Shown: positions 32,828 through 51,256, counted from the stretch's first letter. The stretch is DNA of 51,545 bases from an uncultured Alphaproteobacteria bacterium (GCA_965651535.1 CBFGSX010000001.1:1-51545), one strand, 5' to 3'. The notes: generated from the letters alone by a model not told the origin. Made by a program: numbers and translations.

Positions 32828-32840
32828 TATGGACTTTCAA

Positions 32841-32920: not shown

Positions 32921-32925
32921 GGCAA

Positions 32926-35774: not shown

Positions 35775-35836
35775 AAACCATAAGTTGTCGAGTCGTTGCC
35801 GGATGGTGCAAGACGGGCATAAAGGAGCGTATTTTC

Positions 35837-36079: not shown

Positions 36080-36177
36080 ATTGACATAAAATTACATTTT
36101 TGGTAGAAAGACCGGGCCGACGGGATTCGCTGTCGGGTTGCCCTTCTTTTATCCTGAACGAACGACGAGGAAACACC

Positions 36178-36864
36178 ATGCGCCACGCGATTTTTTCCGA
36201 CAAGCCGATTGAAACTCTGGTGCTGCATCCGGATGATGCCGCCTATCTGATCGGCAATTATTCTTTCCGCTGGCAGCGCGCACGCGAGCAAAAAGTCAAG
36301 AAAGTGATCGAAAACGGCAAAACCGCTTATCGGCAGGACGATAGCGGCACACATATTATCCAGACATTGCCCCTGCCGGTATCGCTGAAAGGGGTTCAGT
36401 ACACGGTCAGTAACGGGAAAGATCATGAGCCGAAGAATCCCGATGAATTCTATCCGGAGTTTTTCTCCAAAAATTTCGATCCGGCGCGCTCTTGCCTGAA
36501 CTATGTTGCGCCGATTCTGTCCTTTACCTTGGATGCGCGCGGCGTAAACGACGGTTTGTCGTTCTTTTGCAACGAGAACCTGCGCACGGCCCTGAACGAT
36601 TGCGTCCCGCAGGAAAAAGTCGAAATCAGCGAAAAAGCCGAGAGAATCCTGAGCCGAAGCGACGTTGTCTTGTCTTCCATGGTTTACGAGGATGTTGTCC
36701 AGCTGGGCCGGAACGTGATCGAAACGTTTCAGGAAAACCTGTCGCCGATCATGAGCGACTTCCTCGACGATATGCCCGAGGTTTCGCCCTATAACGAAGA
36801 AGGGGTTCGCCTTCTTTACGGCGATCCGAAAAAGAAAATCGTCGTCAAACCCCTAGCGCCGTGA
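36178..36864 (+). CDS. hypothetical protein (228 aa)
   Basis: ATG 36178 follows GAGGA. No domain recognised. The 3' end overlaps the holin-like gene convergently by 12 nt. Confidence 0.5.
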   Translation: MRHAIFSDKPIETLVLHPDDAAYLIGNYSFRWQRAREQKVKKVIENGKTAYRQDDSGTHIIQTLPLPVSLKGVQYTVSNGKDHEPKNPDEFYPEFFSKNFDPARSCLNYVAPILSFTLDARGVNDGLSFFCNENLRTALNDCVPQEKVEISEKAERILSRSDVVLSSMVYEDVVQLGRNVIETFQENLSPIMSDFLDDMPEVSPYNEEGVRLLYGDPKKKIVVKPLAP

Positions 36865-37341
36865 TTTCTCGCCGCTGCGGCGATAGACGTAAATCCCTAG
36901 CACCGACAACCCGACCGTCCAGATCGTGTCGAGCGATCCGATGGCGTTCAAAAGGACGGGTGCCTTTTCCGGATGGTCGAGGATGACGAAGGCGACGGCC
37001 AGCATCTGCGCCGCCCATGTCGCGGCGATGATGTAGCCAAAGGTTGGCCGCATGCGTCGCACATAAATATCCTCGGAGGCGATTTCGGCGCGTAAGGATT
37101 CGTTGATCTGCGCGATCAGCGTTTTGAATTCTTCGGAATCCGTCGCCGCCATTTTCTCGATATGGCGGTTGGCCTCCTTAAGGTCGTCGCCCGATAGCGC
37201 GCCGGTGGTGAGCGCGTCCTCGACTTTTTTCAGCGCGTCGGCGGCTGTTTTGGCGACGGGGTTTTGCACCTTGTCCAGCCCGTGCGTGACCGTAGCGATC
37301 AGCGCAGGCAATCCGACGCGGGCAAGTAAAGCAGGGAGCAT
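36853..37341 (-). CDS. putative holin (resembles the 3-TM GTA-type holin family)
   Basis: Soluble helical N-terminal half, then RMRPTFGYIIAATWAAQMLAVAFVIL and two further hydrophobic segments. Immediately downstream of the endolysin gene. Confidence 0.5.
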   Translation of the reverse strand: MLPALLARVGLPALIATVTHGLDKVQNPVAKTAADALKKVEDALTTGALSGDDLKEANRHIEKMAATDSEEFKTLIAQINESLRAEIASEDIYVRRMRPTFGYIIAATWAAQMLAVAFVILDHPEKAPVLLNAIGSLDTIWTVGLSVLGIYVYRRSGEKSRR

Positions 37342-37349
37342 TAAATCAC

Positions 37350-37412
37350 AATTCCCCGCGCAAGCGGGGATCCCGGCAATATGAGGCTGAGATTCCCGCT
37401 TTCGCGGGAAAG
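37350..37412. repeat. REP doublet (family P1) between the endolysin and holin genes
   Basis: TTCCCCGCGCAAGCGGGGATCC ... GATTCCCGCTTTCGCGGGAAAG. Confidence 0.75.
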
Positions 37413-37425
37413 TGTTTTTCTCATC

Positions 37426-37902
37426 TTATCTCTCCAATTTATAAAACACGTGCCCGCCGATTTCGGCGACGGGGACGCGATCAAGCGCCCATTTCGGCGA
37501 AACGTAATGCGCGTGATAGTGATCCGCGCCGTTGGTGTTATCGGCCAGATTTCCCTGCACGGCGCGGCGCGCGATGCGCAGGCAGGTGGCGAAATTCGGG
37601 TCGTCGCTGCCCACGGCGCGCAGCTTGAAATAATTGGGATCGTTTTCCAGCCAGCACGAGAATTGATATTTTTTCGTGCAGACCTCGACGATGGAATTGC
37701 CCCACCACATTTTGCCGCGCTTTTGCGCGAGGCGGACGCGGTTCATCACGACGGCGGCGACGGCCTCTTTGCCCGCAAGGCTTTCGCCGCGCGCTTCGCC
37801 CCAGAGGGTGCGCGCCAGAATGTCGGTCGCCTCGGCCTCGTCAAAAGTGACGGGCGGCGGCATTTTCGGCGTTTCGGGTTTCAGAATACGGCGGAAAAAC
37901 AT
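37426..37902 (-). CDS. cell-wall hydrolase, SleB/Hydrolase_2 type (endolysin)
   Basis: ILARTLWGEARGESLAGKEAVAAVVMNRV...QFSCW...HYHAHYVSPKWA is the SleB-type hydrolase signature. AAGGAG RBS. Confidence 0.85.
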   Translation of the reverse strand: MFFRRILKPETPKMPPPVTFDEAEATDILARTLWGEARGESLAGKEAVAAVVMNRVRLAQKRGKMWWGNSIVEVCTKKYQFSCWLENDPNYFKLRAVGSDDPNFATCLRIARRAVQGNLADNTNGADHYHAHYVSPKWALDRVPVAEIGGHVFYKLER

Positions 37903-37938
37903 GGTTTACTCCTTGGGTTTTGTAACACGTGTCGTTTT

Positions 37939-38036
37939 CCCCTCTCCCGTTCGCTTCGCTCACGACCTCTCCCGCAAGGGGAGAGGTGTTTCTTTGGCTC
38001 CCTCCCCCCTGGCGGGGGAGGGTTGGGGAGAGGGGG
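37939..38036. repeat. composite hairpin repeat (family S), copy 4
   Basis: CCCCTCTCCC...GACCTCTCCC-gcaa-GGGGAGAGGT...CTCCCTCCCCCC-tggc-GGGGGAGGG...GGGGAGAGGGGG. About 85% identical to 47434-47536. Confidence 0.8.
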
Positions 38037-38044
38037 TATATTCG

Positions 38045-38314
38045 TCATTCCTTGAGTTTGAAAGTCGTGTTGTCCAGCTTGGTTTCGATGCGCAATAAAT
38101 GTGCGATCAGGCGGGATTCAAGGTCTTTGACATGGTTGATCGAGGCGTAATTCTGCGCGACCTCGAGCTTGTAGGCGTTGAAGCGCTCGCGAAAATCGAT
38201 CAGCGCGCGCTCGACATCGCGGCGGAAGCGCGAAAACGCGACGAGGAACGCCGTGGCCAGCGGCACATCCACCGCCAGCACCCATGTCAAAACGGGATCA
38301 GAAAGAAAACTCAT
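38045..38314 (-). CDS. small phage membrane protein (89 aa; N-terminal TM plus coiled coil, spanin- or holin-like)
   Basis: Consensus RBS AAGGAGG before ATG 38314. TM segment VLTWVLAVDVPLATAFLVAF, then a heptad-rich tail. Overlaps the terL stop by 17 nt. Confidence 0.5.
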   Translation of the reverse strand: MSFLSDPVLTWVLAVDVPLATAFLVAFSRFRRDVERALIDFRERFNAYKLEVAQNYASINHVKDLESRLIAHLLRIETKLDNTTFKLKE

Positions 38315-39674
38315 CGTCGCCTCCTTGGAGGAAATGGGTGGTGTTGCCGCCCGCGCCGCCCAAAGACGGCCCGGCGAGAATCGCGGCGGCGGCAGCATCG
38401 AGCGCGTCGTCGGACGCGTTTTTGTCGTCGGGCCGCCAGTCGCGCATCTGCGCGGGCAAAATTCCGGCGCGCACCCGCGCATGGGCGTGAACGGCCCCGC
38501 TCGACAGCGGCGCTTCGAAGGCCGCCAGAATGCGCGACTGTTTCGATTGGCTGCTGTGATGCGGCTGCACGGCGCAGGTCACGTTTTCCTCGCGCAGCGT
38601 CTTGCGCAAAAGCCCCGGCAGAAACTGGCCCAGCCCGTTATTCTCGACAAGGATATGTTTGATGCCGTGTTCGCGGATAAAGGCCGCGACGTTGCGGCAT
38701 TGCGCCGTGGCGCTGTCCTCGCCGTCGGATTTCAGCGCAACCAGATCATGCAGATAGATGTTGCGCTGATTGTCGAACAGCACGAGGGCGACGATGCTGT
38801 TGTCGCCGTGTTCGTGGCCGAAAGCCGGATCCCAGGCGCAGCGCTGTGCCGCAACCGTGATGGGGTGCGTGTCGTCATAAGGCACAAGGCGCGCGGGATC
38901 GAGCCGGATGGCGTGCAGCGGCACGGGTTGGAGCAGCATCTGGCTGGCATAGATGCTGGCCGCGACGTTTTTTTGCAGATCGGAAATAATGCGTGGCGTG
39001 AAACGCTCGGGCCAGACATTCTCGCATAACGGAATGGCGAGGCGCGCATATTCGCCCAAGAATCCGTTTTTCTTATACAGGCTGTCTTCGGCGTGCGGCG
39101 TGCCGATGTATAAAATCAGCCCGCCGGGCGCAAGAATGAAATCCAGCTCGGAAAGCTTGTCGCGCAGCGCGCGGCGCTTGAAGGCGGTATCCGCCGTTTT
39201 CGGCACTTCGACATCGTCGCAGATGATCATGTCGGCACGGGAACCCGTGATGTTGCTGGCGATGCCCGCCGCGCGCAAGGAAGGGTCGCGGCTGACATTT
39301 TTGCGCCGCACGGTCAAACGGTCGCGCGCCCATTCGCGGGGTTTGTGCGGCATCAGGCAGCGCGCCAGAAGATGCGTCTCGAGAATATGCCGCACATGGC
39401 GCACCATGTTCTCGGCCAGATCCTCGTCGGCGGCGACGACCAGAATGCGCAGCTCGGGGTCGTGGCACAGCGCCCAGGCGCAATACAGCCCCGTCAAGGT
39501 CGATTTGCCGCTGCCGCGAAACGCCATCAGCAACAGGCGCTTGCGCGTCCGTCGGCTTTGGCGCGACAGCCACGACGCCATGCGCTTGTGCAGGCGCGGC
39601 GTCATTAGATTTTGCTGCGTGTTCCACACGCCGACAAAAAGCTCAAAGCTGATCTTCCGCCGCATCATCGTCAC
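38298..39674 (-). CDS. terminase large subunit
   Basis: Walker A FRGSGKST, Walker B MIICDDVE, nuclease-domain AWDPAFG...ALVLFD. 458 aa. Confidence 0.9.
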   Translation of the reverse strand: MTMMRRKISFELFVGVWNTQQNLMTPRLHKRMASWLSRQSRRTRKRLLLMAFRGSGKSTLTGLYCAWALCHDPELRILVVAADEDLAENMVRHVRHILETHLLARCLMPHKPREWARDRLTVRRKNVSRDPSLRAAGIASNITGSRADMIICDDVEVPKTADTAFKRRALRDKLSELDFILAPGGLILYIGTPHAEDSLYKKNGFLGEYARLAIPLCENVWPERFTPRIISDLQKNVAASIYASQMLLQPVPLHAIRLDPARLVPYDDTHPITVAAQRCAWDPAFGHEHGDNSIVALVLFDNQRNIYLHDLVALKSDGEDSATAQCRNVAAFIREHGIKHILVENNGLGQFLPGLLRKTLREENVTCAVQPHHSSQSKQSRILAAFEAPLSSGAVHAHARVRAGILPAQMRDWRPDDKNASDDALDAAAAAILAGPSLGGAGGNTTHFLQGGDDEFSF

Positions 39675-39960
39675 CCTCGTTGTGGTTTCCGGCCAGCGCG
39701 CGGCGGGCCGTGCGCATGGCGTCGTCGTAATCGGCCGGTTGTTCGGCCTTGTCCGTTTTCAGCGCCGCCGCCAGCTTGTAAAGCGACAAAAGATGCGCGA
39801 CGCCCGCGCGCGCAGCTTTGTGATGGCGGTCGAAATCCTTGGCGTCCATCGGCGAATCCTGGAGCGCAAAGAGGCCGTAATCCTCGACCACGCGGCGGAT
39901 AACGTCCGGCAGGTTTTCGCGAAGCTGTTCTTCAAGTAAATCGCAAGGCTCATGGGTCAT
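39643..39960 (-). CDS. hypothetical phage protein in the small-terminase position (105 aa)
   Basis: ATG 39960 follows AGGAAAAGGA. Immediately upstream of terL and overlapping it. Function inferred from position only. Confidence 0.4.
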   Translation of the reverse strand: MTHEPCDLLEEQLRENLPDVIRRVVEDYGLFALQDSPMDAKDFDRHHKAARAGVAHLLSLYKLAAALKTDKAEQPADYDDAMRTARRALAGNHNEGDDDAAEDQL

Positions 39961-39968
39961 TCCTTTTC

Positions 39969-41996
39969 CTAGGCGGTGTAGCGGTTGAGAACGTGCCACG
40001 CGCCGCCGTCGGACATGAGCGTGATGGCGTGATAGCGCGCGGTCAGGGTTTTATTCGCGCCGTCCGGGCCGCTGCCGCCGCTTTCCGAAACGGTGACGGC
40101 GTTGCCCGAGGCGTCGGTTTTCTTGATCGTCAGCAAGCGTCCGACGGATTGCGCCGCGTTGGCGGGCGGCAATTCGACGGTGACTGCCCCGCCCGAGGCG
40201 CTGACAAGGTGCAAACGCCGGGTGACATCCGGCACATAGGTGGACACGCCGTCCACATAATGCGCGTTGCGCGGCATGACGCTGCTGGACAGGGTGCGCC
40301 ACGATCCGCCGTCGGAAAAAACGATCGCGACATCGTGCTGCGCGCCGAGGCGGATCGTCTTGCCGTCGGGGCCGGGGCCGCCGTCTTCGGTGATGAGGAC
40401 GGCGTTGTTCGAGGCGTCGTATTTCTTGACCAGAATGACCGCGCCCGCATTGGAGGTTGCGGCGGCCGGCAATTCGACGGTGGTTTCGCCGTTGGTGGCG
40501 TCGACGATGTAGACGGATTTGCTTAAATTCACTTCGGCGGTGTTCGGCTCGCCGAAAGCGACGGACTCGACGCCGAAGCGTAACTGGCCGATGGTCGCGT
40601 CGTCGATATGGCTGCGCTGGAGCTTGTTCTTGTGCGGGAAGCCGGCGTTATAGGCCGTGTATTGCCCGCCGGAATTGTCCAAAATCGCCGGGCCGTCGCT
40701 GTTGGAATAAAGATTGAGGATTGAGGTTTCGATCGAGCCGCTATCGAGCTGGATATTCGGCACGCCGTTCGAACCTTCGCATTGCAGATTGACGATCAGC
40801 GTCTTGTCGCTTTGCCCGCCGATGCGAAAACACGCCACGGCATCGTCGCCGACGGAAGCTTCACAATTCACGAAAGCGTTGTTGTATTTCGCGTTCTCGG
40901 GGAAAAACGCCGCGCCCGTCAACGCGTCCGACGTGACGCGGATCTGGACGAAGCCATTGGACGAGGGAAACGCGCCGATCGAGGATTTGATGATATGCAC
41001 GCCGTTAAGCGCGGCGTCTTCGATGGCGATATCCGCAAAGCGGTTGCCTGCGCAGGGCTTGGCGGGATCGTCATAGCCGTCGAGCAAGATCCCCGTCTGC
41101 GCGTTGCGGATGACAAGGTTTTGCGCCGCGTTATCCGTGCAGGGCGACGCACCGCCGTAGAAAATCAATCCGGCATCGCCGTTTTCGACGGCAAAATCGC
41201 GTAAGGTATTCTTGCCGCCCGTTACCGCCAGCGCGTCAAAAGCGTTGGAGCTGGCCTTGATGACGGAGGACGCGCCCGCGCCGCAAAGTTTTTTCCCACC
41301 CGCCACATAAAGTGTGCCGGTGATGCGGTAAACGCCCGGCGGCAGATACACCGCGTCATGCGCGTCGAGCGCGTTTTGGATCGCGCCGAGGTCATCGTTG
41401 GCATCGTCGCCCAAAGCGCCGAAATCGCGCACCGAGACAATTTCCTTGGCTTTGACATCCAGGCCGCGCGGGATCGCGCCCGTGCCGCTTTGCGTGACCG
41501 TCGGCGTGGCATAGGTGTCGGCCGTTTCCAGCAGCGCGATCGCGCCATCATGGTCGAAGCCGAAAGCCTTGTTCGCGCGCGCCGCTTTGGCGGGCAATGT
41601 CGTCGCCGTGTCGTCGCCTTTTGGCAGGCGCAGCATGAAATTCTGGTCGAAGCTCACCTGTTGCAAGGCGGCGGCCTGATAATCGAATTCGTTGTTGAGT
41701 GCATTGGCCGCCAGCTCGCCGCCTTCGAGGAAATCCGACACGCGTTGCAGCGGCAAACGGCGCTCGAGCGCGATCACCGCGCCATTGGCGGGGGCGTTGT
41801 CGAAGATCACGCTGCCGCCCGTCGTGTTGCCCGCGCCGGTGACGGCATGGTTGTTCGTCTGCGGCGCGTCGTTGATCGTCACGGCCAGATCGCTGCTCTG
41901 GAAGATGGCGAAAGGATAGGTGAAGACGGTCTGCGCGCCGTTGCCCGTGTACTGGATGCACGGCGGCAGGTTCAGAATTTTGAGATGTTCGGTCAT
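39969..41996 (-). CDS. tail fibre/tailspike with pectate-lyase-like beta-helix and two C-terminal repeat modules
   Basis: N-terminus IQYTGNGAQTVFTYPFAIF (fibre adaptor-type). VRDFGALGDDANDDLGAIQNALDA...VYLPPGVYRI (Pectate_lyase_3-type). Two ~76-aa repeats LP.A....G....KK.DAS.NAV......GG.GPDG.......SDGG.W..L. Real start is ATG 41996; the 817-aa ORF-track form is an extension. Confidence 0.8.
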   Translation of the reverse strand: MTEHLKILNLPPCIQYTGNGAQTVFTYPFAIFQSSDLAVTINDAPQTNNHAVTGAGNTTGGSVIFDNAPANGAVIALERRLPLQRVSDFLEGGELAANALNNEFDYQAAALQQVSFDQNFMLRLPKGDDTATTLPAKAARANKAFGFDHDGAIALLETADTYATPTVTQSGTGAIPRGLDVKAKEIVSVRDFGALGDDANDDLGAIQNALDAHDAVYLPPGVYRITGTLYVAGGKKLCGAGASSVIKASSNAFDALAVTGGKNTLRDFAVENGDAGLIFYGGASPCTDNAAQNLVIRNAQTGILLDGYDDPAKPCAGNRFADIAIEDAALNGVHIIKSSIGAFPSSNGFVQIRVTSDALTGAAFFPENAKYNNAFVNCEASVGDDAVACFRIGGQSDKTLIVNLQCEGSNGVPNIQLDSGSIETSILNLYSNSDGPAILDNSGGQYTAYNAGFPHKNKLQRSHIDDATIGQLRFGVESVAFGEPNTAEVNLSKSVYIVDATNGETTVELPAAATSNAGAVILVKKYDASNNAVLITEDGGPGPDGKTIRLGAQHDVAIVFSDGGSWRTLSSSVMPRNAHYVDGVSTYVPDVTRRLHLVSASGGAVTVELPPANAAQSVGRLLTIKKTDASGNAVTVSESGGSGPDGANKTLTARYHAITLMSDGGAWHVLNRYTA

Positions 41997-42006
41997 GGAA
42001 GCTCCG

Positions 42007-42471
42007 TTACTTGAGGAAAGAGGCGAGCGTGCCGACCGCGCTGTCGCGCGCGCGGGACGAAGCGCCTTGCAGGCTGAGAAGATTCTTGCGGCGCTTGGCG
42101 GCGGCATCCTGATCGATGGCGGCGCGCTTGAGCGCGTCGAGACGGCCGCGATAATCGCGCTCGGCCTCGGATTCCTTGAGCAGGCCCAGCAGCACCGCTT
42201 CGCCCGAGCCGTCGGACATATCGATGCCCTGCGCGGCGAATGTCGCGCGCTGTTTTGCCGTGGCGCGGCGCAAGGCCTCGCGGCGCTTGCGCGTTTCTTC
42301 GGCGCTTTCCAGCGCCAGCTTCTCGTATTCCGTGGCGGATTTGGCGGCGATGTCCTTTTCCGCCGCGTCATATTGTTTTTTCGCGGCGCGATACGCGCCC
42401 GCCGTGTCCGAGTAGCCGCCATACAGGCCGGTCAGACTCAACACGTTCGAGATCGGATTGAAACCACCCAT
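42007..42471 (-). CDS. hypothetical virion-associated protein (154 aa)
   Basis: Ala/Lys/Arg-rich helical protein. The only ORF in the slot where T7-like phages encode internal core proteins. ATGA overlap with the upstream gene. Confidence 0.45.
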   Translation of the reverse strand: MGGFNPISNVLSLTGLYGGYSDTAGAYRAAKKQYDAAEKDIAAKSATEYEKLALESAEETRKRREALRRATAKQRATFAAQGIDMSDGSGEAVLLGLLKESEAERDYRGRLDALKRAAIDQDAAAKRRKNLLSLQGASSRARDSAVGTLASFLK

Positions 42472-44378: not shown

Positions 44379-44941
44379 CGCACCGTAATCAGGTTGAAGT
44401 CGTCGAAGCCGTTCGGGGTGTCGGAGGCTGCGTCGATGCGGCGCGCGCGCTCCAACTCGCTTTCGGCGAGGCGGTAGAGAAAATTCGCGCGGGAGGTGTC
44501 CTCGGTCAGCGGCAGGCAGAACTCGGCGGCGAGCCGGGCGATCAGCGCGGCTTCAAAATAGGCGGGCGCGGTCTCGTCATCGGGGCGGAAAATATAGGAC
44601 AATAAAATATCGGCGCTGTCGGTGTGGAGCGTGTCGCCGACGCGGCGATAGACGACACCCCGCCCCGATCCGCCAACGCCGACGGATAAAATACGCAAAC
44701 AATCGGAGGGCAGTTGAAAGGCGTGGGAAAAATCGGCAAGCGGTGCGGCGTTCAGTTGCGGCAGCGCCATCTGACCGCGCGCGAAACGCCACGGATAGGC
44801 CGACAACATCGCGTCGCGGGTCGGCTCGTAAAATGCGAGCGCGATTTCGGCTTCGGCGCGGTCGTCGTAGAAACTTTGGATGGGCTGCGCGCCGATTTTC
44901 AAAAGGGCGCGGCTGCACAGCGCGACGGGGGAAAGCGGCAT
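44375..44941 (-). CDS. tail tubular protein A-like (adaptor)
   Basis: 188 aa. ALLKIGAQPIQSFYDDRAEAEIALAFYEPTRDAMLSAYPWRFA resembles podovirus gp11-type adaptors. Position between capsid and the tubular B-like gene. Confidence 0.6.
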   Translation of the reverse strand: MPLSPVALCSRALLKIGAQPIQSFYDDRAEAEIALAFYEPTRDAMLSAYPWRFARGQMALPQLNAAPLADFSHAFQLPSDCLRILSVGVGGSGRGVVYRRVGDTLHTDSADILLSYIFRPDDETAPAYFEAALIARLAAEFCLPLTEDTSRANFLYRLAESELERARRIDAASDTPNGFDDFNLITVR

Positions 44942-44972
44942 GGTGTTTACTCTGGGTTGGACTTATTTATTT

Positions 44973-44998
44973 GCCCTATCGCTTTGCTGCTTGAGGGC
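44973..44998 (-). promoter_or_regulatory. conserved-loop hairpin, copy 1 (upstream of the tubular A-like gene)
   Basis: GCCCT-ATCGCTTTGCTGCTTG-AGGGC. Same 16-nt loop as 46415-46440 with a compensatory stem change. Confidence 0.5.
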
Positions 44999-45062
44999 GA
45001 CTAAAGTTGAAAGAGCCGGGGAATCGGGGGAGGAAACGAAACCCCGGCCCTCTCAGATATTC

Positions 45063-45091
45063 AGTATAGGAATATAATCCTAGACTGTCAA
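45063..45091 (-). promoter_or_regulatory. candidate internal sigma70-type promoter
   Basis: On the minus strand, TTGACA (45091-45086), 17-nt spacer, TATACT (45068-45063), about 120 nt upstream of the tubular A-like ATG. Confidence 0.4.
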
Positions 45092-45103
45092 GGGACGTTT
45101 TTT

Positions 45104-45226
45104 CTCCCTCTCCCCTTCGCGGGAGAGGGATGGGGAGAGGGGGCGGCACAAACAGAATCTGTCGCAACGCCCCTCTCCCGTCTCGGGCCTTCGGCCCTCG
45201 TCGACCTCCCCCGCCAGGGGGGAGGT
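45104..45226. repeat. composite hairpin repeat (family S), copy 5
   Basis: CCCTCTCCCC-ttcgc-GGGAGAGGG, GGGGAGAGGGGG...CCCCTCTCCC, GACCTCCCCC-gcca-GGGGGGAGGT. Confidence 0.75.
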
Positions 45227-45232
45227 AATTTT

Positions 45233-45484
45233 TTACGCGGCCGGATAATCCGCGACCGTCACGACCCCGCTCGTCACCGAGGCGACGAACAAAAGTTTGT
45301 TCACTTGCGTGCCTCCGGTATCGACATTGGCGACGATCAAATCGCCCTTGCGCAACATATCGGACGCGGCGTCGAAATAATTCGCACCCGTTACGGCGGC
45401 GTTGTTATCGGTCGAGGTGTAGTGCCACAACGTAAAGCCGTTGGCATAGGACAACACACTCAGGTTTCTTGCTGCAAAAGTCAT
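45233..45484 (-). CDS. hypothetical phage protein (83 aa)
   Basis: AAGGAGA RBS. Between the capsid and tubular A-like genes. No domain recognised. Confidence 0.5.
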   Translation of the reverse strand: MTFAARNLSVLSYANGFTLWHYTSTDNNAAVTGANYFDAASDMLRKGDLIVANVDTGGTQVNKLLFVASVTSGVVTVADYPAA

Positions 45485-45512
45485 TTTTCATTCTCCTTGT
45501 ATGTGTCGGGGG

Positions 45513-46328
45513 TTATTCGTCGCATTTGATGACGACGACGCCGTTGCCTTCGATCAGGCCGGCGCCTTGCGACATCATGTTGTTGACGAAATGCGCGGCC
45601 TTGTCGCCGTGCCAGCTGATATCCGTCTGGATATCCGCGCCGACCGCGTGGCCGATGGCGGATTTGTGATACCAGAAACAGTTGCGCACGCCGGTGTCGA
45701 TCGGCAATCCCGAATGCGGGATCCACAACGTGCCCAGCCAGCGCTTAGCTTGCGTGGAGACAAAAGGCAGCTGATCGGTGCCGACGTAATCGGCGCTGGC
45801 GAATTCCTTCAGGCCCAGCAGTTCCGACCATTGCTTCCAACCGACGACGGCGGTGCGTTCGCCGTCATCCGGCACGTCCTGCGCGCCGAGCAATTCCAGC
45901 GCTTCTTCGATTTTTTCCATCGTCATGCCGGTGGAGCCATGCGCGATGTCGTTGGTCGAGGCGTTCAGCGCGGCGATGATCAGCTCGTCCGATTTGCGGC
46001 CCAGCGCATAGGCGCCGGCATTGGCGATGACCTGGCGCTCGTCGATGTTGACTTTCAGCTCGTCGAGTTTATCGACCCAGTCGCCGGCATAGTAATCGGC
46101 CAGCGTGACCTCGATCGCAGAATGGTCGAGATTCATGACGGGCACGTTGCCGTGACGCGATTTGGTCGCGGCAATGCCTTTGCCGACTTTCTGGAAGGTC
46201 GTCGAGCTGCCGATCACGCCCGATTTGCTGCGGACGGTGCTGCGCAGTTTGCTGCCCATGCGTTGATAGGATTCGAAAACTTCGCTTTCGAATTGTTTGA
46301 CAAAGGCTTGTGTAATGGAGGTGGCCAT
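45513..46328 (-). CDS. major capsid protein
   Basis: 271 aa. Position after the scaffold gene. N-terminus ITQAFVKQFESEVFESYQRMGSKLRSTVR and overall pattern resemble small podovirus capsid proteins. AAGGA RBS. Confidence 0.75.
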   Translation of the reverse strand: MATSITQAFVKQFESEVFESYQRMGSKLRSTVRSKSGVIGSSTTFQKVGKGIAATKSRHGNVPVMNLDHSAIEVTLADYYAGDWVDKLDELKVNIDERQVIANAGAYALGRKSDELIIAALNASTNDIAHGSTGMTMEKIEEALELLGAQDVPDDGERTAVVGWKQWSELLGLKEFASADYVGTDQLPFVSTQAKRWLGTLWIPHSGLPIDTGVRNCFWYHKSAIGHAVGADIQTDISWHGDKAAHFVNNMMSQGAGLIEGNGVVVIKCDE

Positions 46329-46414
46329 TGTTGTTTTCCTTGTTGAAAAGAGTCATAAGGATGCCGTTCGCGTTTGCCCGATACGGGACGCGTTAGACAG
46401 TTTGTTTTATTTTT

Positions 46415-46440
46415 GCGCTATCGCTTTGCTGCTTGAGCGC
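46415..46440 (-). promoter_or_regulatory. conserved-loop hairpin, copy 2 (upstream of the capsid gene)
   Basis: GCGCT-ATCGCTTTGCTGCTTG-AGCGC. Confidence 0.5.
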
Positions 46441-46516
46441 AGTTTTTCCGGCGGCTGGGCCGTTATCGGAGGAGAAAGGGGCGCGAAATCGCGCTTGTCC
46501 TTTGGATTTTTTTAGA

Positions 46517-46694
46517 TTGAAACGCAGAGCTAGACAGAGAAAAACAGGGCGTCCTGCGATAACGTCTCCCCCCCCCATTGTCATTCCTGCGAAAGCAGGA
46601 ATCCACAATCATTATGAGGATGGATGCCAGCTTTCTCTGGCATGACGGTTTAGGAGAGTTTCTCTGTCTATCTCTGTCTGGCTCTGCGTTTCAA
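46517..46694. mobile_element. MITE-like element, copy D (178 bp) with a nested family P1 REP
   Basis: TTGAAACGCAGAGCTAGACAGAGA ... TCTCTGTCTATCTCTGTCTGGCTCTGCGTTTCAA. The interior contains GTCATTCCTGCGAAAGCAGGAATCC. Lies between the scaffold and capsid genes. Confidence 0.8.
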
Positions 46695-46706
46695 AAATTT
46701 AATTCC

Positions 46707-47393
46707 TTATTCCCGTTCGGCGAAGACCTGACGGAAGCCGTCCGAGACTTTCCGGACGAAAGCCGGGTCTTTCTCGCGCCAGTATTTCGGATCTTTCATC
46801 AGGGCGCGCAAAGCGGCGGCATCAAGCGCGGGTGCTTCGTCGGCCTGCTGCACGGCGAGCGGCTTGCCCGATTGCATCATTTTATACAGCGCCATCACGC
46901 CTTCATACGAGGTGGCAAGGCCTTCGAGCACGTCAGCGGGCAGGTTCTTGCGGCCATAGGCCAGTAATTGCCGCGCCGTTTCGGCATAGCGTTCCTTGCC
47001 GCCGAAAGCGTCGATCAGGCGGTCGAGCTGGCGCTCGGCCTCGAATTCGCGCGCGATGTCCAAAACCAGCGGCACCATATATTCGGCGGCAAGGTCGTAG
47101 AGGAATTGCGCTTGCGCCTGGGTGAAGCCGTTCTCGAACAGTTTTTTGTTGATCTCGTCGTCCTGCGTGAACATTTCGTGGCGGATTTCGATTTTATAAT
47201 CCTCGGGTTTTTCCGGCACGCCGAGGAAGTCGAGAATTTTGCCGCGGTCGAGTTTCGACGGGTCGTTGGCCGCCGCCAGTTTCTTTTCCAGCTCGAGATA
47301 GGATTTCAGCAGCGCGTCGGCGCGGATCTGTTTCGTTTCCTTGTCGAGGAATTTTTCGGGAATGGCGGGGGTGTCTTCAAGCAGATTGTCCAT
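46707..47393 (-). CDS. capsid scaffolding protein
   Basis: 228-aa acidic helical protein between portal and capsid. ATG 47393. The ORF-track N-terminal extension runs through a family S repeat. Confidence 0.6.
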   Translation of the reverse strand: MDNLLEDTPAIPEKFLDKETKQIRADALLKSYLELEKKLAAANDPSKLDRGKILDFLGVPEKPEDYKIEIRHEMFTQDDEINKKLFENGFTQAQAQFLYDLAAEYMVPLVLDIAREFEAERQLDRLIDAFGGKERYAETARQLLAYGRKNLPADVLEGLATSYEGVMALYKMMQSGKPLAVQQADEAPALDAAALRALMKDPKYWREKDPAFVRKVSDGFRQVFAERE

Positions 47394-47433
47394 GATGGGT
47401 CTCTTTTCTTTCTGGGTTGGTAGTAAAATATTT

Positions 47434-47536
47434 CCCCCTCTCCCGCCCGTGCTTCGCAGGGCGACCTCTCCCGCAAGGGGAGAGGTATTTCTTGGGCTCC
47501 CTCCCCCCTCGCGGGGGAGGGTCGGGGAGAGGGGGG
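47434..47536. repeat. composite hairpin repeat (family S), copy 6
   Basis: Same architecture and orientation as 37939-38036. Confidence 0.8.
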
Positions 47537-47542
47537 TATGAT

Positions 47543-47788
47543 TCATGGTTGTTTCCCCTTGGCGGTCATTTGACAGATGAAAAGGACAAGCTGTCTTTGT
47601 CCGTCAAGGAAATGCAGATGATTGTCGGGAATATTCGGATCGTTCACGCGGAACACGGCGTAGGCGTGCAGATGTTCCAGAACGGTTTTACCGTCCGCAG
47701 TTTCAAACAGTCGCGCATAGGCGCGGGCGATGTCGTCGGCTTCGCGCGGCTTGGCGGCAAATTTCGATAGGGCGGAGAAAAAGCTCAT
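47543..47788 (-). CDS. Bbp19-like small phage protein (81 aa)
   Basis: FETADGKTVLEHLHAYAVFRV...LHFLDGQRQLVLFI resembles the Bbp19 family of Bordetella podophage BPP-1 (from memory). ATGA overlap with the portal stop. Confidence 0.5.
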   Translation of the reverse strand: MSFFSALSKFAAKPREADDIARAYARLFETADGKTVLEHLHAYAVFRVNDPNIPDNHLHFLDGQRQLVLFICQMTAKGKQP

Positions 47789-49251
47789 GCGATGTTTTCC
47801 GTCTTGATCAGGTGCGGCGGCACGCCGACCTGCCGCGCCAGATAAGAAAGCATGGCCGGCACGTCGATGCTGTCGAGCGCCTTGTCGCCGTATTGCTGTG
47901 CCGTTTGCAGCCAGCCAAGCGTCGCGGAGACGTCGCGCTGGGATTGCGCGCGCGCCAGCGGCGAACGGTATTCCAGCGTCAGCAAACGCCCGTCCACGGG
48001 AATATCGGCAATCTCGCCGCGCGTGCGCAAAATCGACAAGGCGCGCATCGCCAGCGGCGTGAGCAATTCCGATTGCAGGCGGCCATAGGTCGCGCCCAAG
48101 GATTGCGCGATGTCGTTTTGGCGCTCGAGAATTTCGGTCGCGGTCATTTTCTTGTTATTGATCCGTAATTGGTCGCCCAAAAGCGCGTGGGAAATTTTCT
48201 GGCGCAAATCGCCCAAGACAAGCTGCGAGATATTGAAATCGCCCGGCATCTTGAGGGGGGTCAACCCGGCAGAGCCGACGGCTTTGGGAATGATCGCGCC
48301 GGGGACGAGTTTGATGTTGGCGGGATTGAGAACGCCGTCATCATCGGCCAGCCAGATTCCCGTCACCGAGATCGAGGCGTTTTTCAAAATCAGCTCGACG
48401 ACTTTGTTGGCGGTCTTGATGTCGGGCAGCGCCTTCATCACCGGCGAGCGGCCATAGACGTCGCCGGCGGCTTTCTGCCAGCGAAAGGCGATAAAAGGCG
48501 AGGCGGCGACGCGCATTTGCTCGAGCAGCAACGGATCGGAGTCTTCGGGGTTGAGGATAAAGGACAGGATCGCCCCGCCTTGCGGGTGCGGCACGGCGGC
48601 ATAGAGAATCGAATGCCGCGCATCGGCGGGCGCGTCGGCGTCGATTTTCTCCGCCGCTTGCGGAAAACGCGCCAGCACTTCTTCGGTGCCGAGCGTCAGG
48701 CGGCTGAAGGCGGCATCCAGGCTCCCGCGCGCGCTGTCAAGGAAATGCACCGCGTGAAGCGGCAGGGCCGAGAAATGAAAGGCCGAGGACTCGCCCGGAT
48801 CAGCCTCGTCGAAACGCAGACACGCCGTGCCGAAGATGACGAGGTCGAGAAAGGCCTGGTGCATTTCGACGGCGAAATTGCTGCGGTCGAAATGGCCTTG
48901 CAGGACGGCGTTCATCTCGCGCAGGGCGGGGCCGAGGGCTTGAACGTCCTCGGGGCCTGCGCTCGGGCCTGGACCGACGGCGATCCAGCTTGAGAAAGGC
49001 GGCGTGAGTTGCGCCAGCAGGGACGACGCCAACTGGTCGATGGCGTCGGCGGCGGTACCGTCGAAGAGTTTTGCGTTCTTCGTCTGAACGCTGCCCTGCG
49101 CGTTGCGGCGATAGGGCAAGGTGTAATCGGCGCATTCCTGCCACAGGCTCTCGAGCGGCTGGCGCAAAGTCTGCGCCACGCGCCAGCGCGCGAGCAGGTC
49201 GGCGGTCGGCGGGCCTTTGGACAAGGGCCGCGTCAGGGCGTGAACGGTCAT
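47785..49251 (-). CDS. portal (head-to-tail connector) protein
   Basis: 488 aa. First large gene of the module. Pattern W.ECADYTLPYR...FDGTAADAIDQLASSL...RSPVMKALPDIKTANKV resembles T7 gp8-type connectors. Confidence 0.8.
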   Translation of the reverse strand: MTVHALTRPLSKGPPTADLLARWRVAQTLRQPLESLWQECADYTLPYRRNAQGSVQTKNAKLFDGTAADAIDQLASSLLAQLTPPFSSWIAVGPGPSAGPEDVQALGPALREMNAVLQGHFDRSNFAVEMHQAFLDLVIFGTACLRFDEADPGESSAFHFSALPLHAVHFLDSARGSLDAAFSRLTLGTEEVLARFPQAAEKIDADAPADARHSILYAAVPHPQGGAILSFILNPEDSDPLLLEQMRVAASPFIAFRWQKAAGDVYGRSPVMKALPDIKTANKVVELILKNASISVTGIWLADDDGVLNPANIKLVPGAIIPKAVGSAGLTPLKMPGDFNISQLVLGDLRQKISHALLGDQLRINNKKMTATEILERQNDIAQSLGATYGRLQSELLTPLAMRALSILRTRGEIADIPVDGRLLTLEYRSPLARAQSQRDVSATLGWLQTAQQYGDKALDSIDVPAMLSYLARQVGVPPHLIKTENIA

Positions 49252-49255
49252 AAGC

Positions 49256-49486
49256 TTATTCTCCGAGCAGGGTTTTGCGGGACGGCGACGACGTGTCCGA
49301 CAACACGCCGCTGATCGAGGTTAAAATCGTCCCGAGGCGGCCGCGGCGGCGCGACAGGATGTTTTTGACGCGCATTTCATCGGCGGTCGGTTCCGGTGTC
49401 GTTTCCGCTTCGATGACGGGCGTTTCGACTGCGACAGGCACTTCGACGATTTTCGGCGCCTTGGGAGGCGAGATGATTTTAGCCAT
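49256..49486 (-). CDS. hypothetical phage protein (76 aa)
   Basis: Pro/Glu/Thr-rich N-terminus and basic C-terminus. Overlaps the upstream gene by 8 nt. Confidence 0.4.
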   Translation of the reverse strand: MAKIISPPKAPKIVEVPVAVETPVIEAETTPEPTADEMRVKNILSRRRGRLGTILTSISGVLSDTSSPSRKTLLGE

Positions 49487-49886
49487 AGACCATTTCCTTT
49501 TTAAGGTAAGAGTAAAGTTGCCACGGCGTCAGAATTTGCCGCGCATGGATGCCCAAGAATCGTTTGATGACCTCGACGCAGGAAAACCAGTTCGCCGGTG
49601 CCGCCTTGTTGTGGCCGCGGCGGATCGGCGCTTTGACGACGGTCAGGCCTTGTCCTTCGAGCCAGCGCGGCAGGTCGAAACCGCGCGGCATGGGCAGCAC
49701 CGCCAGTTCCAGATGCGGGCTAAGCGGGTCGAGCACGATCCAGCTTTTCGCGTCGCGCGCCACGACAAAGCAATGGCGAAAGCCCGGCTTGAGCATTTTC
49801 AGCCACCACAATTCGGCCTCGCCTGAAAAACACACCCAGGCCTCATGGGGTTCGTGCTTGTCGTCATGGCGGGCTTGACCCGCCAT
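49479..49886 (-). CDS. hypothetical phage protein (up to 135 aa; start uncertain)
   Basis: ATG 49886 lies inside a REP hairpin. GTG 49835 (after GAGG) or ATG 49796 are alternatives. Contains RHCF and FSCVEVIKRFLGI (His/Cys spacing reminiscent of permuted papain-like folds; speculative). Confidence 0.4.
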   Translation of the reverse strand: MAGQARHDDKHEPHEAWVCFSGEAELWWLKMLKPGFRHCFVVARDAKSWIVLDPLSPHLELAVLPMPRGFDLPRWLEGQGLTVVKAPIRRGHNKAAPANWFSCVEVIKRFLGIHARQILTPWQLYSYLKKEMVYG

Positions 49887-49931
49887 CCTTGCGCGGAGAT
49901 CTCTCGAGGATCCCGCGTCAAGCGCGGGATT
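49863..49931. repeat. REP doublet inside the phage-like cluster
   Basis: ATGGCGGG-cttga-CCCGCCAT and GGATCCCGCG-tcaa-GCGCGGGATT. Confidence 0.7.
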
Positions 49932-49948
49932 ACGGCTAAATTTGTTTC

Positions 49949-50275
49949 TCACAGCACAATTCCTTTCCGTTGAAGCGGCGGGGTCAGGCGTTGCATGGCC
50001 TGCGTCCATAAAATCGTATCGCGTTGTTTTTTTCCCGAGGGTCTGAGCTGGATGCGGCCGTAATGCGCCAGCGTCTTCAGGTGCGGCAGGCGCAGCAATT
50101 TCTGATCGGCCAGACGCAGCACGACTTTCTGGATGTCGACCGCCTCGCAGGGGCGGGGCGTCTCGGTCATGCCCGCTTGCTGGCGCGCGCCGCCATAGCG
50201 GGCTTCGGTGGTGGAAACGCACCAGAACCAGGCCTCTTCGGCATCGGGGAAGGGGTGGAGGGAATAATCGCGCAT
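49949..50275 (-). CDS. hypothetical protein, first gene of the late operon (108 aa)
   Basis: ATG 50275 immediately follows the divergent control region. No domain recognised. A regulator is plausible from position only. Confidence 0.4.
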   Translation of the reverse strand: MRDYSLHPFPDAEEAWFWCVSTTEARYGGARQQAGMTETPRPCEAVDIQKVVLRLADQKLLRLPHLKTLAHYGRIQLRPSGKKQRDTILWTQAMQRLTPPLQRKGIVL

Positions 50276-50286
50276 TTTTAGACTTG

Positions 50287-50383
50287 AATTCCTTTGATAG
50301 GCGGTATAAGGTGAGTATAATCCTTCTTACTATGATTTTATTCCTAGGTCAAGGGGTAAAATGAATATATTCCTATTTTAGGG
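50287..50383. promoter_or_regulatory. three operator-like ATTCCT-N5/6-AGG sites in the divergent control region
   Basis: AATTCCTTTGATAGG (50287-50301), TATTCCTAGGTCAAGG (50339-50354), TATTCCTATTTTAGGG (50369-50384, containing the dyad CCTA-ttt-TAGG). Confidence 0.4.
50294..50321 (+). promoter_or_regulatory. candidate sigma70-type promoter of the repressor gene
   Basis: TTGATA (50294-50299), 16-nt spacer, TATAAT (50316-50321). Overlaps operator-like site 1. Confidence 0.45.
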
Positions 50384-50407
50384 CTTCACATACGGGGAGA
50401 GGCATAA

Positions 50408-51064
50408 ATGGCGCTGAAACATCAGGATATCTGGCGGGCAATCGACCTTTTGGCCGAAAGCCACGGCATGTCGGCTTCGGGGCTGGCGCGCGCCGCCGGG
50501 CTTGATCCGACCTCATTCAATCCCAGCAAGCGTATTACCAATGACGGGCGGGCGCGGTGGCCGTCCACCGAAACGTTGGCCAAAATTTTTCAGGTGACGG
50601 GTGAGACTTTTGACAAATTGCCCGATTTGATCCGCGGCGAGATTCATGACGGCCCGCGCATGAAAAAAGGCATGTTGCAAAAAATTCCGCTGATCGGCTG
50701 CGCGCAGGCGGGGCAAGAGGGGTATTTCGACGATGCCGGTTTTCCGGTCGGCTCGGGCTGGGAGATGATCGAGTTTCCGAAAATGGGCGACCCGAGCATC
50801 TACGCGCTCGAAGTGTCGGGTGAAAGCATGGAGCCGCTCTATCGCGACGGCGATATTCTGATTGTCTCGCCTTCGGCAGAGAGTCTGCGCAAGGGCGACC
50901 GCGTCGTCGTGAAAACGGCCAAAGGCGAGGTCATGGCCAAGCAACTCAGCCGCCTGACCCAGTCGCAAGTGACGCTCAAATCGCTCAACGAAGCGTTCGA
51001 CGACATCGTCCTGCCGCGCGATGCGGTGCAATGGCTCGCGCGCATCTTGTGGGTCAGCCAATAA
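50408..51064 (+). CDS. CI/LexA-like repressor (HTH plus S24 self-cleaving peptidase, COG2932 type)
   Basis: N-terminal HTH (MSASGLARAAGLDPTSFNPSKR). S24 Ser motif SGESMEP and Lys in GEVMAKQL. GGGGAGAGG RBS. Confidence 0.88.
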   Translation: MALKHQDIWRAIDLLAESHGMSASGLARAAGLDPTSFNPSKRITNDGRARWPSTETLAKIFQVTGETFDKLPDLIRGEIHDGPRMKKGMLQKIPLIGCAQAGQEGYFDDAGFPVGSGWEMIEFPKMGDPSIYALEVSGESMEPLYRDGDILIVSPSAESLRKGDRVVVKTAKGEVMAKQLSRLTQSQVTLKSLNEAFDDIVLPRDAVQWLARILWVSQ

Positions 51065-51094
51065 TGTGATATAATCCATTCTGGCTACCGCGCC

Positions 51095-51121
51095 CCCCGT
51101 CATTCGTGACGGGGTTTTTTT
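51095..51121 (+). terminator. rho-independent terminator of the repressor gene
   Basis: CCCCGTCA-ttcg-TGACGGGG followed by TTTTTTT. Confidence 0.75.
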
Positions 51122-51256
51122 ATGGGGATAAAAATTATCCGTCATCCCGGCGAAGGCCGGGATCCACTTATCAACACGACAAGCGCTTGTTTATCGGCAC
51201 AATGGACCCCGGCTTTCGCCGGGGAAGCGGTGTGTTGTAAAACCGAAGGAAAACCA

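Follow-up and report, generated by a model that had tools for sequence, protein, structure and literature searches.

A podovirus-type operon for heads, tails, packaging and lysis facing an S24 repressor in alphaproteobacterial chromosomes: a candidate gene transfer agent

Virion genes that stand in the late order of phage T7 on a bacterial chromosome, without the genes by which a phage replicates or moves, raise the question of what they are kept for. Such a cluster occupies positions 36853-50275 (minus strand) of a contig from an uncultured Alphaproteobacteria bacterium (GCA_965651535.1, CBFGSX010000001.1:1-51545). The window analyzed here is this complete contig of 51,545 bp. An initial annotation, made from the sequence alone, had proposed that the cluster is a candidate domesticated particle locus resembling a gene transfer agent (GTA), and each in silico check that it suggested has supported the proposal. 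We favor the view, to which we assign a probability of roughly 0.6, that the cluster is an anciently domesticated podovirus, namely a vertically inherited, SOS-switched chromosomal operon of 17 genes that would act as a GTA-like viriform rather than as a virus. It is a strong candidate for a new podovirus-type GTA, for which gene-transfer activity is predicted.

Gene identities were assigned by profile searches against Pfam, PHROGs and NCBIfam, and folds by comparison of AF2 models with the PDB and BFVD. The elements of the locus are as follows, in operon order.

50408-51064, plus strand: S24 repressor, helix-turn-helix (HTH) and S24 peptidase, 218 aa; PF00717 Peptidase_S24, E 7e-24; phrog_4 "transcriptional repressor", E 3e-26
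50276-50407: divergent control region, 132 nt, between S24 and o108
49949-50275, minus strand: o108, first gene of the operon, predicted four-helix protein; AF2 pLDDT 84
49479-49886, minus strand: c26, second small open reading frame (ORF), 135 aa with corrected start; 353 homologues; AF2 pLDDT 84
49256-49486, minus strand: orf76, upstream of the portal gene, conserved C-terminal RKTLLGE; phrog_831, E 3e-5
47785-49251, minus strand: portal (head-to-tail connector), 488 aa; PF12236, E 3e-115; phrog_332, E 1e-85
47543-47788, minus strand: Bbp19-like small protein; PF25181, E 4e-12
46707-47546, minus strand, probable true start 47393: T7-type scaffold (capsid assembly); PF05396, E 6e-13
46329-46706: scaffold-capsid gap with a host miniature inverted-repeat transposable element (MITE) at 46508-46697; insertion hot spot of the cluster family
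45513-46328, minus strand: major capsid protein, 271 aa; PF19821, E 1e-82; phrog_3437, E 4e-74
45233-45484, minus strand: o83, small conserved protein between capsid and tubular A; phrog_18004, E 4e-17
44375-44941, minus strand: tail tubular protein A (adaptor, gp11-like); phrog_394, E 4e-44; PF17212, weak
42471-44378, minus strand: tail tubular protein B (nozzle, gp12-like), 635 aa; phrog_376, E 1e-152; PF25675, weak
42007-42471, minus strand: orf154, single gene of the ejectosome slot; phrog_418 "internal virion protein", weak, E 0.005
39969-41993, minus strand: tail fibre/tailspike, 674 aa with corrected start; phrog_1640, E 1e-30, residues 12-114; PF12708, E 2e-13
39643-39999, minus strand: s118, protein of the small-terminase (terS) slot, overlapping the start of terL; phrog_31793, E 1e-11
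38298-39674, minus strand: large terminase (TerL), T7 type, 455-458 aa; phrog_38, E 4e-79; PF22530, E 8e-7
38045-38323, minus strand: transmembrane and coiled-coil protein, 92 aa with corrected start, heading the lysis cassette; phrog_29007, E 5e-17
37426-37902, minus strand: SleB-type cell-wall hydrolase (endolysin); PF07486 (Hydrolase_2), E 4e-22; phrog_938 endolysin, E 1e-20
36853-37341, minus strand: holin with three transmembrane segments; PF11351 (GTA_holin_3TM), E 5e-11; phrog_3427 holin, E 4e-7

All 17 ORFs are intact and tightly packed, with short gaps or overlaps of 1-8 nt. Together, these 13.4 kb hold the head, tail, DNA-packaging and lysis genes of a short-tailed phage, and the presence of portal, scaffold, capsid, tubular A, tubular B, fibre and terminase genes places them among T7-order modules. 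The T7 late order and the intactness of the 16 ORFs first described are borne out by the Pfam and PHROG matches, which uphold the structural calls; with the 154-aa ORF included, the count becomes 17. The ATGA/GTGA-type junctions noticed at the same time are genuine overlaps of 4 nt and 1 nt (portal/Bbp19, tubular A/tubular B and tubular B/orf154). The fibre combines an N-terminal phage tail-protein domain (phrog_1640, labelled just "tail protein"), a body with a pectate-lyase fold and two repeated C-terminal domains (internal repeat 40161/40461). An 817-aa version of this ORF was rejected as upstream read-through, the true start being at 41993, 13 nt past the orf154 stop. The 150 nt upstream of the probable scaffold start include a host repetitive extragenic palindromic (REP) copy at 47462-47535, and scaffold orthologues measure 223-250 aa. 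The position of s118 is conserved in relatives, and from this position only we infer a terS role. The transmembrane and coiled-coil protein, whose place before SleB is likewise conserved, may be spanin- or antiholin-like. As for the holin, the match to a family named for GTA release had been given some weight; the match is real, and the name is discounted here, as an ordinary phage holin family matches also.

No integrase or replication gene was found among the cluster genes or the other genes of the window, and a tRNA scan of the window was negative. No att-like repeat was found: the longest match between the flanks is 11 nt, as compared to 10.2 nt in shuffled sequences, which is the chance level. 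The remaining 36 kb carry dnaK, dnaJ, uvrC, queA, an aminoacyl-tRNA synthetase gene, an aldehyde dehydrogenase gene, genes for PBP2, a chemoreceptor and a Fic protein, and mreC, mreB, leuS, lepA, rplT, rpmI and gyrA. The reported lack of polymerase, primase/helicase, integrase and excisionase genes is thus confirmed. Since the contig is the window itself, extension beyond its ends, as the initial annotation had advised, was replaced by comparison with related loci (labelled L001, L002 and so on). In syntenic relatives, host genes stand on both sides, with YihY/BrkB, ferritin and thioredoxin genes on the S24 side and gyrA, rpmI and rplT on the other. In the closest relatives (L001, L122), the DNA beyond S24 includes a gene for a small conserved protein besides those for the YihY/BrkB membrane protein, for ferritin and for thioredoxin. 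Because relatives have host genes there, early, replication or integration genes do not lie just outside the window. More generally, no integrase, recombinase, primase or att repeat belonging to the cluster was found in about 20 complete contexts. The sole recombinase seen in them belongs to L061, where a mobile element of low GC3 (GC content at third codon positions), with tyrosine recombinase and resolvase genes, is inserted between tubular B and orf154 (L061 12992-17067).

This gene content, chromosomal particle genes without replication, excision or integration functions, is that of GTAs and viriforms. The integrase, replication/primase module and att repeats that characterize phage satellites (phage-inducible chromosomal islands (PICIs), capsid-forming PICIs, P4-like elements) are found neither in nor beside the cluster. 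Tailocins have no head, portal or terminase genes; the cluster has conserved genes for all of portal, scaffold, capsid and TerL. Finally, the DNA-metabolism and early genes, the integrase with att sites and the gp15/gp16 proteins of a T7-order prophage are missing. As far as can be predicted from its genes, the operon encodes all that is needed for a DNA-filled short-tailed particle and for lysis, and nothing for replication, excision or integration.

The region behind tubular B is informative in this respect. The nearest cultured phages are the HTVC010P-type pelagiphages and a few other 35-kb podoviruses. The highest identities to cultured phages are 50% (capsid protein, Hodr), 34% (portal), 33% (tubular B) and 35% (TerL), far below the 50-80% that chromosomal copies share across bacterial families. 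The cluster family forms a chromosomal clade separate from the cultured phages. In Hodr, the genes after tubular B encode proteins of 159 aa (phrog_418, E 1.5e-4), 783 aa and 1247 aa (phrog_342 "internal virion protein with endolysin domain"), and then the fibre. In the chromosomal relatives, the interval from tubular B to the fibre measures 430-1400 nt, except in L061 with its mobile element, and a single protein is encoded inside. No large internal virion protein of the gp15/gp16 type was found after tubular B in the window or in any chromosomal copy. Hydrophobic at its N-terminus, the single protein contains a coiled coil and the conserved motif RR-ALRRA...G-GSGEA-LLG. The orf154 family aligns with the 159-aa protein of Hodr, and relatives match phrog_418 down to E 1e-5, so that a gp14-like internal virion protein is the probable identity of orf154. 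The ejection channel of T7 consists of gp14 in the outer membrane and of gp15 and gp16 across the periplasm and the inner membrane. The ejectosome had been described as absent, with one 154-aa ORF in its slot. The single ORF stands, as a genuine and conserved gene; since it is probably gp14-like, the ejectosome is better described as truncated.

Sequence comparisons suggest that the cluster has been inherited with the chromosome. In five distant lineages, the S24 side is made of a class-I lysK, a DinG-like helicase gene, a TerB-like gene and groEL, and this flank is also found beside S24 in cluster-less genomes. Pairwise identities of the portal, capsid and tubular proteins parallel those of LysK and of the DinG-like helicase; LysK is 58-79% identical where the portal is 58-73% identical (for L021-L030, LysK 79%, portal 72%, capsid 77%; for L004-L021, 58%, 58% and 70%). 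S24 distances correlate with those of the structural proteins (Mantel r 0.89-0.95, a figure inflated by the many close relatives in the sample), which argues against the module shuffling typical of phages.

The genes are under purifying selection. In close pairs (dS 0.05-0.3), dN/dS is 0.03-0.27 for every gene, or else substitutions are too few; examples are 0.03-0.06 for the portal, 0.06-0.09 for TerL, 0.05-0.11 for the capsid, 0.07-0.10 for tubular B and 0.08-0.19 for the fibre. The dS of S24 in the closest pairs (0.14-0.29) is of the same order as that of the cluster genes (about 0.05-0.31). Between the window and L036, dS is saturated or nearly so (from 0.96 for o83 to more than 2, or incalculable), and all the cluster genes that L036 covers (16 of 17; S24 lies just outside the L036 locus) are intact. 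Vertical inheritance and purifying selection of particle genes, both found here, are also what is expected of GTAs and viriforms.

Composition is that of the host, as had been judged by eye. GC3 is 0.766 in the cluster and 0.745 in host genes. Relative synonymous codon usage in the cluster correlates with that of the host at r = 0.988, compared with 0.985 between two halves of the host genes and 0.78 for two atypical genes. Host repeats have entered three or four intergenic gaps of the cluster. The MITE at 46508-46697 belongs to the same family as 3086-3260, 3917-4110 and 6897-7073, and GC-rich REP copies inside the cluster (37963-38036, 45112-45143, 47462-47535) match copies at 28170-28201. 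The MITE-like family, about 190 nt long with terminal inverted repeats TTGAAACGCAGAGCTAGACAGAG, has at least four copies in the window, two of which flank an ORF at 3300-3920. REP-like hairpins occur also at 5709-5784 and 20086-20161; they translate as "...SPLAGEGWGEG...", several score as terminator-like, and they are found in intergenic regions of host and cluster. Purifying selection by itself fits a domesticated element and an active prophage alike; it is in combination with the missing mobility genes, vertical inheritance and long residence that it excludes a neutral remnant.

In 50 homologues of the S24 protein, the N-terminal HTH and the catalytic Ser and Lys are conserved, and an invariant Ala101 precedes Gly102 at the cleavage site. 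The gene is monocistronic, with a strong terminator-like hairpin 3' of it (51095-51114). Identity with the host LexA was rejected, TIGR00498 giving 33 bits for a cut-off of 111, through the C-terminal domain only. Nor is S24 simply a prophage CI, as it is anchored to host genes and persists where the cluster has been lost. The control region contains four (A/T)TCCT boxes, at about 50288, 50321, 50340 and 50369. Boxes 1 and 2 overlap the sigma-70-like promoter of S24 (50294-50321, TTGATA-16-TATAAT). A leftward promoter is plausible, with a putative -35 element TTGACC (reverse complement of 50347-50352) and box 3 in its spacer. About 110 nt are nearly invariant among the window, L001, L002 and L122, although S24 dS amounts to 1.5-2.2; the 132-nt control region is more constrained than coding sequence.

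WTCCTA occurs in 39 of 46 related control regions (3.8 expected), one copy being fixed at -39 relative to the start of S24; the motif may serve as an operator half-site or belong to the S24 promoter. The exact alphaproteobacterial SOS box GAAC-N7-GAAC is present in 28 of 47 related S24/o108 intergenic regions (0.34 expected), usually 46-95 nt upstream of o108. It was not found in the control regions of the window, L001, L002 and L122, and a CtrA box (TTAA-N7-TTAA) is absent from all 47 control regions searched. The idea that the late genes face an SOS-type switch directly is therefore supported for the family by the divergent S24 gene and by the LexA box of relatives; in the window, the switch would work through S24 alone, by binding that is predicted. 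Within the operon, a near-consensus promoter of the sigma-70 type (TTGACA-17-TATACT, a consensus match only) lies on the minus strand at 45063-45091, within the 291 nt that separate o83 from tubular A, and may start a separate transcript for the tail, packaging and lysis genes.

The S24 search of species-representative genomes gave 34 loci, the TerL search 1,939 proteins and the capsid search more than 590 stretches in IMG/VR. All contigs of sufficient length show one unit: S24, o108, c26, (orf76), portal, Bbp19, scaffold, capsid, o83, tubular A, tubular B, orf154-like, fibre, small ORF, TerL, transmembrane protein, SleB and (holin). Carriers are many Acetobacteraceae, Azospirillaceae and unclassified Alphaproteobacteria, including Roseomonas, Craurococcus, Belnapia, Dankookia, Paracraurococcus, Roseococcus, Azospirillum and Geminicoccaceae; among the culturable ones are Belnapia moabensis, Craurococcus roseus JCM 9933, Roseomonas sp. 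KE0001 and Azospirillum sp. SYSU D00513. In isolate genomes, the stretches that IMG/VR predicts as "prophage" span 15-19 kb, from S24 to SleB or holin. Presence in a single strain, which would have spoken against domestication, is thus not what is seen. In six lineages of the window's clade, the slot between S24 and gyrA holds the cluster (GyrA 81-83% identical to that of the window in L002 and L036). Four copies, those of the window, L036, L121 and L123, are complete; two are decayed, with the portal fused to the lysis cassette in L002, and with portal and capsid truncated and the tubular genes lost in L122. The syntenic cluster at gyrA with dN/dS well below 1 that had been foreseen is therefore found. 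A single ancestral chromosomal slot for the whole family is unsupported, as the S24 flank consists of lysK/DinG/groEL, of mdh/suc genes, of pur genes or, in the window's clade, of YihY/thioredoxin.

Two genes of the operon are also found on their own. In Acetobacteraceae without particle genes, o108 and o83 still stand beside S24 (L003, L005, L007, L012, L013, L015, L018, L020, L022, L023, L025, L026, L027), the pair being about 700-1000 nt upstream of S24 in most and about 4.3 kb in L027. An exact LexA box precedes the pair in most of these genomes, not in L013, and pairwise dN/dS of o108 and o83 among seven of these genomes is 0.05-0.27. The pair looks like an exapted, SOS-controlled two-gene remnant. 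Other genes have entered the cluster. GGDEF/EAL, histidine-kinase and PilZ genes are inserted in the scaffold-capsid gap of relatives, and an EamA transporter gene between the tubular genes; such host-type signalling and cargo insertions occupy L043 4788-8771, L053 6699-9083, L119 13890-16238, and L120 13723-14112 and 16353-17273. The recurring cyclic di-GMP (c-di-GMP) theme at the scaffold-capsid gap may reflect regulation of particle production. In L053 and L057 (1-4950), the portal gene is interrupted by another prophage, which has a capsid of the HK97 type.

These observations bear on the alternative that stands up best, though we regard it as unlikely: domestication for a purpose other than transfer, such as SOS-triggered altruistic lysis or DNA release, an anti-competitor particle, or an anti-phage decoy whose structural proteins would poison assembly in infecting relatives. 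What the particle does is left unspecified by domestication, purifying selection and SOS-type control. Because o108 and o83 are kept where particle genes have been lost, part of the locus has a function independent of particles, and their purifying selection in genomes without any particle genes fits this alternative, as do the c-di-GMP and sensor genes embedded in relatives, which suggest a tie to host signalling. It is, however, hard to explain without DNA-filled heads why the portal, scaffold, capsid, terS-slot protein and TerL evolve at dN/dS 0.03-0.15. Moreover, a device for lysis would need just the last three genes, and tailocin-like killers do without heads.

A helper-dependent mobile element, that is, a capsid-forming satellite or a minimal temperate podophage dependent on a helper phage or the host for the proteins of replication, excision and ejection, is improbable. 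Capsid-forming satellites lacking some functions offer a precedent for an element with its own capsid, packaging and tail genes and without replication genes and large internal proteins; the S24-side flanks vary among distant lineages, and IMG/VR tools score the locus as viral. A 5,084-bp contig from human faecal samples, deposited as "Bacteriophage sp." (MT838907.1), carries a portal gene (49% identity) and a capsid gene (57%) of the family. If it derives from a virus-like-particle fraction, this would be a hint that locus DNA reaches particles, contamination being an equally possible source. Against a helper-dependent element, the integrase, recombinase, primase and att repeats are missing from the complete contexts described above, and the slot is fixed within the window's clade, whose GyrA proteins are about 81-83% identical (L002, L036). 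Divergence of the cluster matches that of adjacent housekeeping genes, its codon usage is the host's, host MITEs and cargo genes lie inside it, and module shuffling is absent. An ordinary, functionless cryptic prophage on its way to deletion, to which the missing early, replication, integration and two large virion genes and the internal deletions, truncations and insertions of L002, L037, L053/L057, L061 and L122 might point, is very hard to reconcile with ORFs that stay intact across saturated synonymous divergence (window vs L036), with dN/dS of 0.03-0.27 in every gene, with a control region more conserved than coding DNA and with a gene set common to Acetobacteraceae, Azospirillaceae and unclassified lineages whose LysK is just 58% identical.

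Under the favored reading, a domesticated GTA-like operon, the following mechanism can be proposed. The operon diverges from the conserved CI/LexA-like HTH-S24 gene across the constrained 132-nt control region. S24 would bind the WTCCT boxes overlapping both promoters and, in most relatives, LexA would also bind GAAC-N7-GAAC 46-95 nt upstream of the first gene. Upon DNA damage, RecA-stimulated self-cleavage would de-repress the operon in a fraction of the cells. By homology, the portal, scaffold and capsid proteins would then build a head, which the small subunit and TerL would fill with DNA of the unamplified chromosome. The tail would consist of tubular A, tubular B and the tailspike, and the transmembrane protein, SleB and the holin would release the particles. 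The gp15- and gp16-like proteins would have disappeared, the gp14-like one being kept. Because the proteins lost are those of the periplasm and inner membrane, delivery would reach no further than the periplasm, and uptake by the recipient would be needed, as for the GTA of Rhodobacter capsulatus (RcGTA). It is this dependence on the recipient that would make the element a GTA rather than a virus.

Several points weigh against this reading. The element is known here from its genes alone, so that particles, packaged DNA and transfer are all deductions. The missing ejection proteins could lie elsewhere in the genome. The LexA box is missing from the control region of the window, and binding of S24 to the WTCCT boxes is likewise deduced. 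The cluster is patchy, about 8 of the 34 S24-bearing species representatives having structural genes, and decay is evident in several copies (L002, L037, L053/L057, L122); selection for its retention is therefore lineage-specific. The S24-side flank varies among distant lineages (lysK, mdh/suc genes, pur genes), and old transpositions are possible. The capsid protein and the scaffold have the same size as in phages of about 35 kb. Since the scaffold and an unshortened capsid protein are retained, the head may, by analogy with these relatives, hold about 35 kb, more than the 13.4-kb locus, and the classical rule that a GTA packages less than its own locus may not apply. Finally, o108, c26, orf76, o83 and s118 have no assigned function.

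Something can nevertheless be said of the small proteins. Homologues of orf76 occupy the same slot in relatives, and an o83-type protein is found in the same slot in phage Hodr. o108 is conserved beside S24 even where the cluster is gone; it has no match in Pfam, PHROG, NCBIfam or PDB sequences, and no significant fold neighbor in the PDB. c26 has invariant His38, Cys39 and Cys103. Family profile searches and a PDB sequence search gave no match for it. The only significant matches of its model are to uncharacterized phage proteins in BFVD (E 3e-7, TM 0.70); matches to PDB folds are weak (E >= 0.26), the leading ones being mostly Cys peptidases. As a hint from the model, c26 may be phage-derived, possibly a permuted papain-like enzyme serving as a virion-associated or maturation peptidase.

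To our knowledge, only a handful of independently domesticated GTA lineages exist, and the characterized alphaproteobacterial ones (RcGTA, BaGTA) are all siphovirus-like. Like the RcGTA-type GTAs (R. capsulatus, Caulobacter, Dinoroseobacter; Rhodogtaviriformidae), the cluster resides in Alphaproteobacteria, groups structural and packaging genes in about 14 kb, lacks replication and integration genes, is inherited vertically under purifying selection, is host-like in composition and encodes a PF11351 holin and a Hydrolase_2 endolysin. Periplasmic delivery would be a further shared trait, deduced for the cluster from its genes. In contrast, RcGTA is an HK97-like siphovirus, while the cluster is a T7-order podovirus, with no homology in architecture. 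Neither the HK97-type g1-g15 cluster nor CtrA/GafA control is recognized here, all structural matches being of the podovirus/T7 type. Unlike RcGTA, the cluster contains its lysis genes, is controlled by S24 and/or a LexA box with no CtrA box in 47 loci, retains its scaffold with a head size probably not reduced, and is retained patchily, decaying in some lineages. It is also found in Rhodospirillales-type lineages, whereas complete RcGTA clusters, absent from Rhodospirillales, occur only in the Rhizobiales-Rhodobacterales-Caulobacterales-Sphingomonadales-Parvularculales clade (PMC5721377).

The closest cultured relatives are the HTVC010P-type pelagiphages (EXVC031P Hodr, HTVC010P) and T7-order podoviruses (Yersinia YeP4-6). 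Hodr/HTVC010P-type phages share with the cluster homologous portal, Bbp19-like, capsid, o83-like, tubular A, tubular B and SleB-type lysin genes. The phrog_418 protein of Hodr is alike at the level of profile and position only, and its fibre only through the shared PHROG N-terminal domain; no scaffold homologue was detected in Hodr by tblastn. These phages differ from the cluster by their 34-36 kb, their DNA-metabolism genes and two large internal virion proteins and, in temperate members, an integrase and tRNA att sites; identity is just 30-35% in most genes. Temperate HTVC010P-type members infect Alphaproteobacteria (PMC8477408).

FpGTA of Faecalibacterium prausnitzii is, like the cluster, a GTA-like element judged to be podovirus-like, in which operons for structure, packaging and lysis are present and further prophage functions are missing; unlike the cluster, FpGTA has a Firmicute host and two separate loci, with no demonstrated kinship to the cluster family (PMC12946183). 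As the 2026 paper calls it the first podovirus-like GTA-like element (PMC12946183), an alphaproteobacterial one is undescribed in the literature searched. Our own search, whose coverage is incomplete so that an earlier description is possible, found no podovirus-type GTA or domesticated cluster reported for Acetobacteraceae or Rhodospirillales. As to control, the locus resembles a lambda-type CI/LexA SOS switch in that an HTH and S24 autoprotease gene is divergent from its presumed targets, with repeated boxes over back-to-back promoters. It differs in that the repressor is anchored to the host and outlives the phage genes, and in that cro and an early operon are missing, the repressor gene standing directly opposite the operon of late structural genes.

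Some features of the window stand apart from the cluster. On the plus strand at 36100-36864, a 254-aa ORF with GC3 0.64, lower than in the host, is convergent with the holin gene and overlaps it by 12 nt. Pfam, PHROG and NCBIfam gave no match for it, and none of the related loci contains a homologue. This accessory gene, specific to the window, lies between the cluster and gyrA, where relatives have other, unrelated ORFs. Just downstream of gyrA, a 97-aa GIY-YIG nuclease ORF (32534-32827) lies between two direct repeats of 89 nt (32445-32533 and 32835-32923, 79% identical), and a similar gene of 101 aa exists in L120; the unit may be a small mobile or homing-type element. The Fic/DOC-domain gene at 28710-29876 has a GC content of 0.47, vs 0.57-0.60, and GC3 0.58, with an AT-rich inverted repeat after it (29889-29980), and was probably acquired horizontally. 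The Rfam match in 35600-51545, a sub-threshold plant miRNA on the REP hairpin at 51135-51235, is spurious.

A more far-reaching version of the favored reading can be put forward tentatively, and we would not yet wager on it. The cluster would represent a second, independent and ancient alphaproteobacterial GTA lineage, podovirus-shaped and SOS-wired, in Acetobacteraceae, Azospirillaceae and allies that lack complete RcGTA clusters, with only the gp14-like outer-membrane part of the ejectosome kept and DNA handed to recipient uptake. Alternatively, if packaging starts inside the locus, it would be a fixed lateral-transduction engine exporting adjacent chromosome from the gyrA region. For annotation, it matters that IMG/VR and prophage finders score hundreds of these loci as "prophages" of 15-19 kb. 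Culturable carriers (Belnapia, Craurococcus, Roseomonas, Azospirillum) make the hypothesis directly testable. If it is true, lineages thought to lack complete GTAs would possess a new GTA family, in which release would be tied directly to DNA damage through LexA and the S24 repressor, and which would offer a natural experiment on a T7-type virion without gp15 and gp16.

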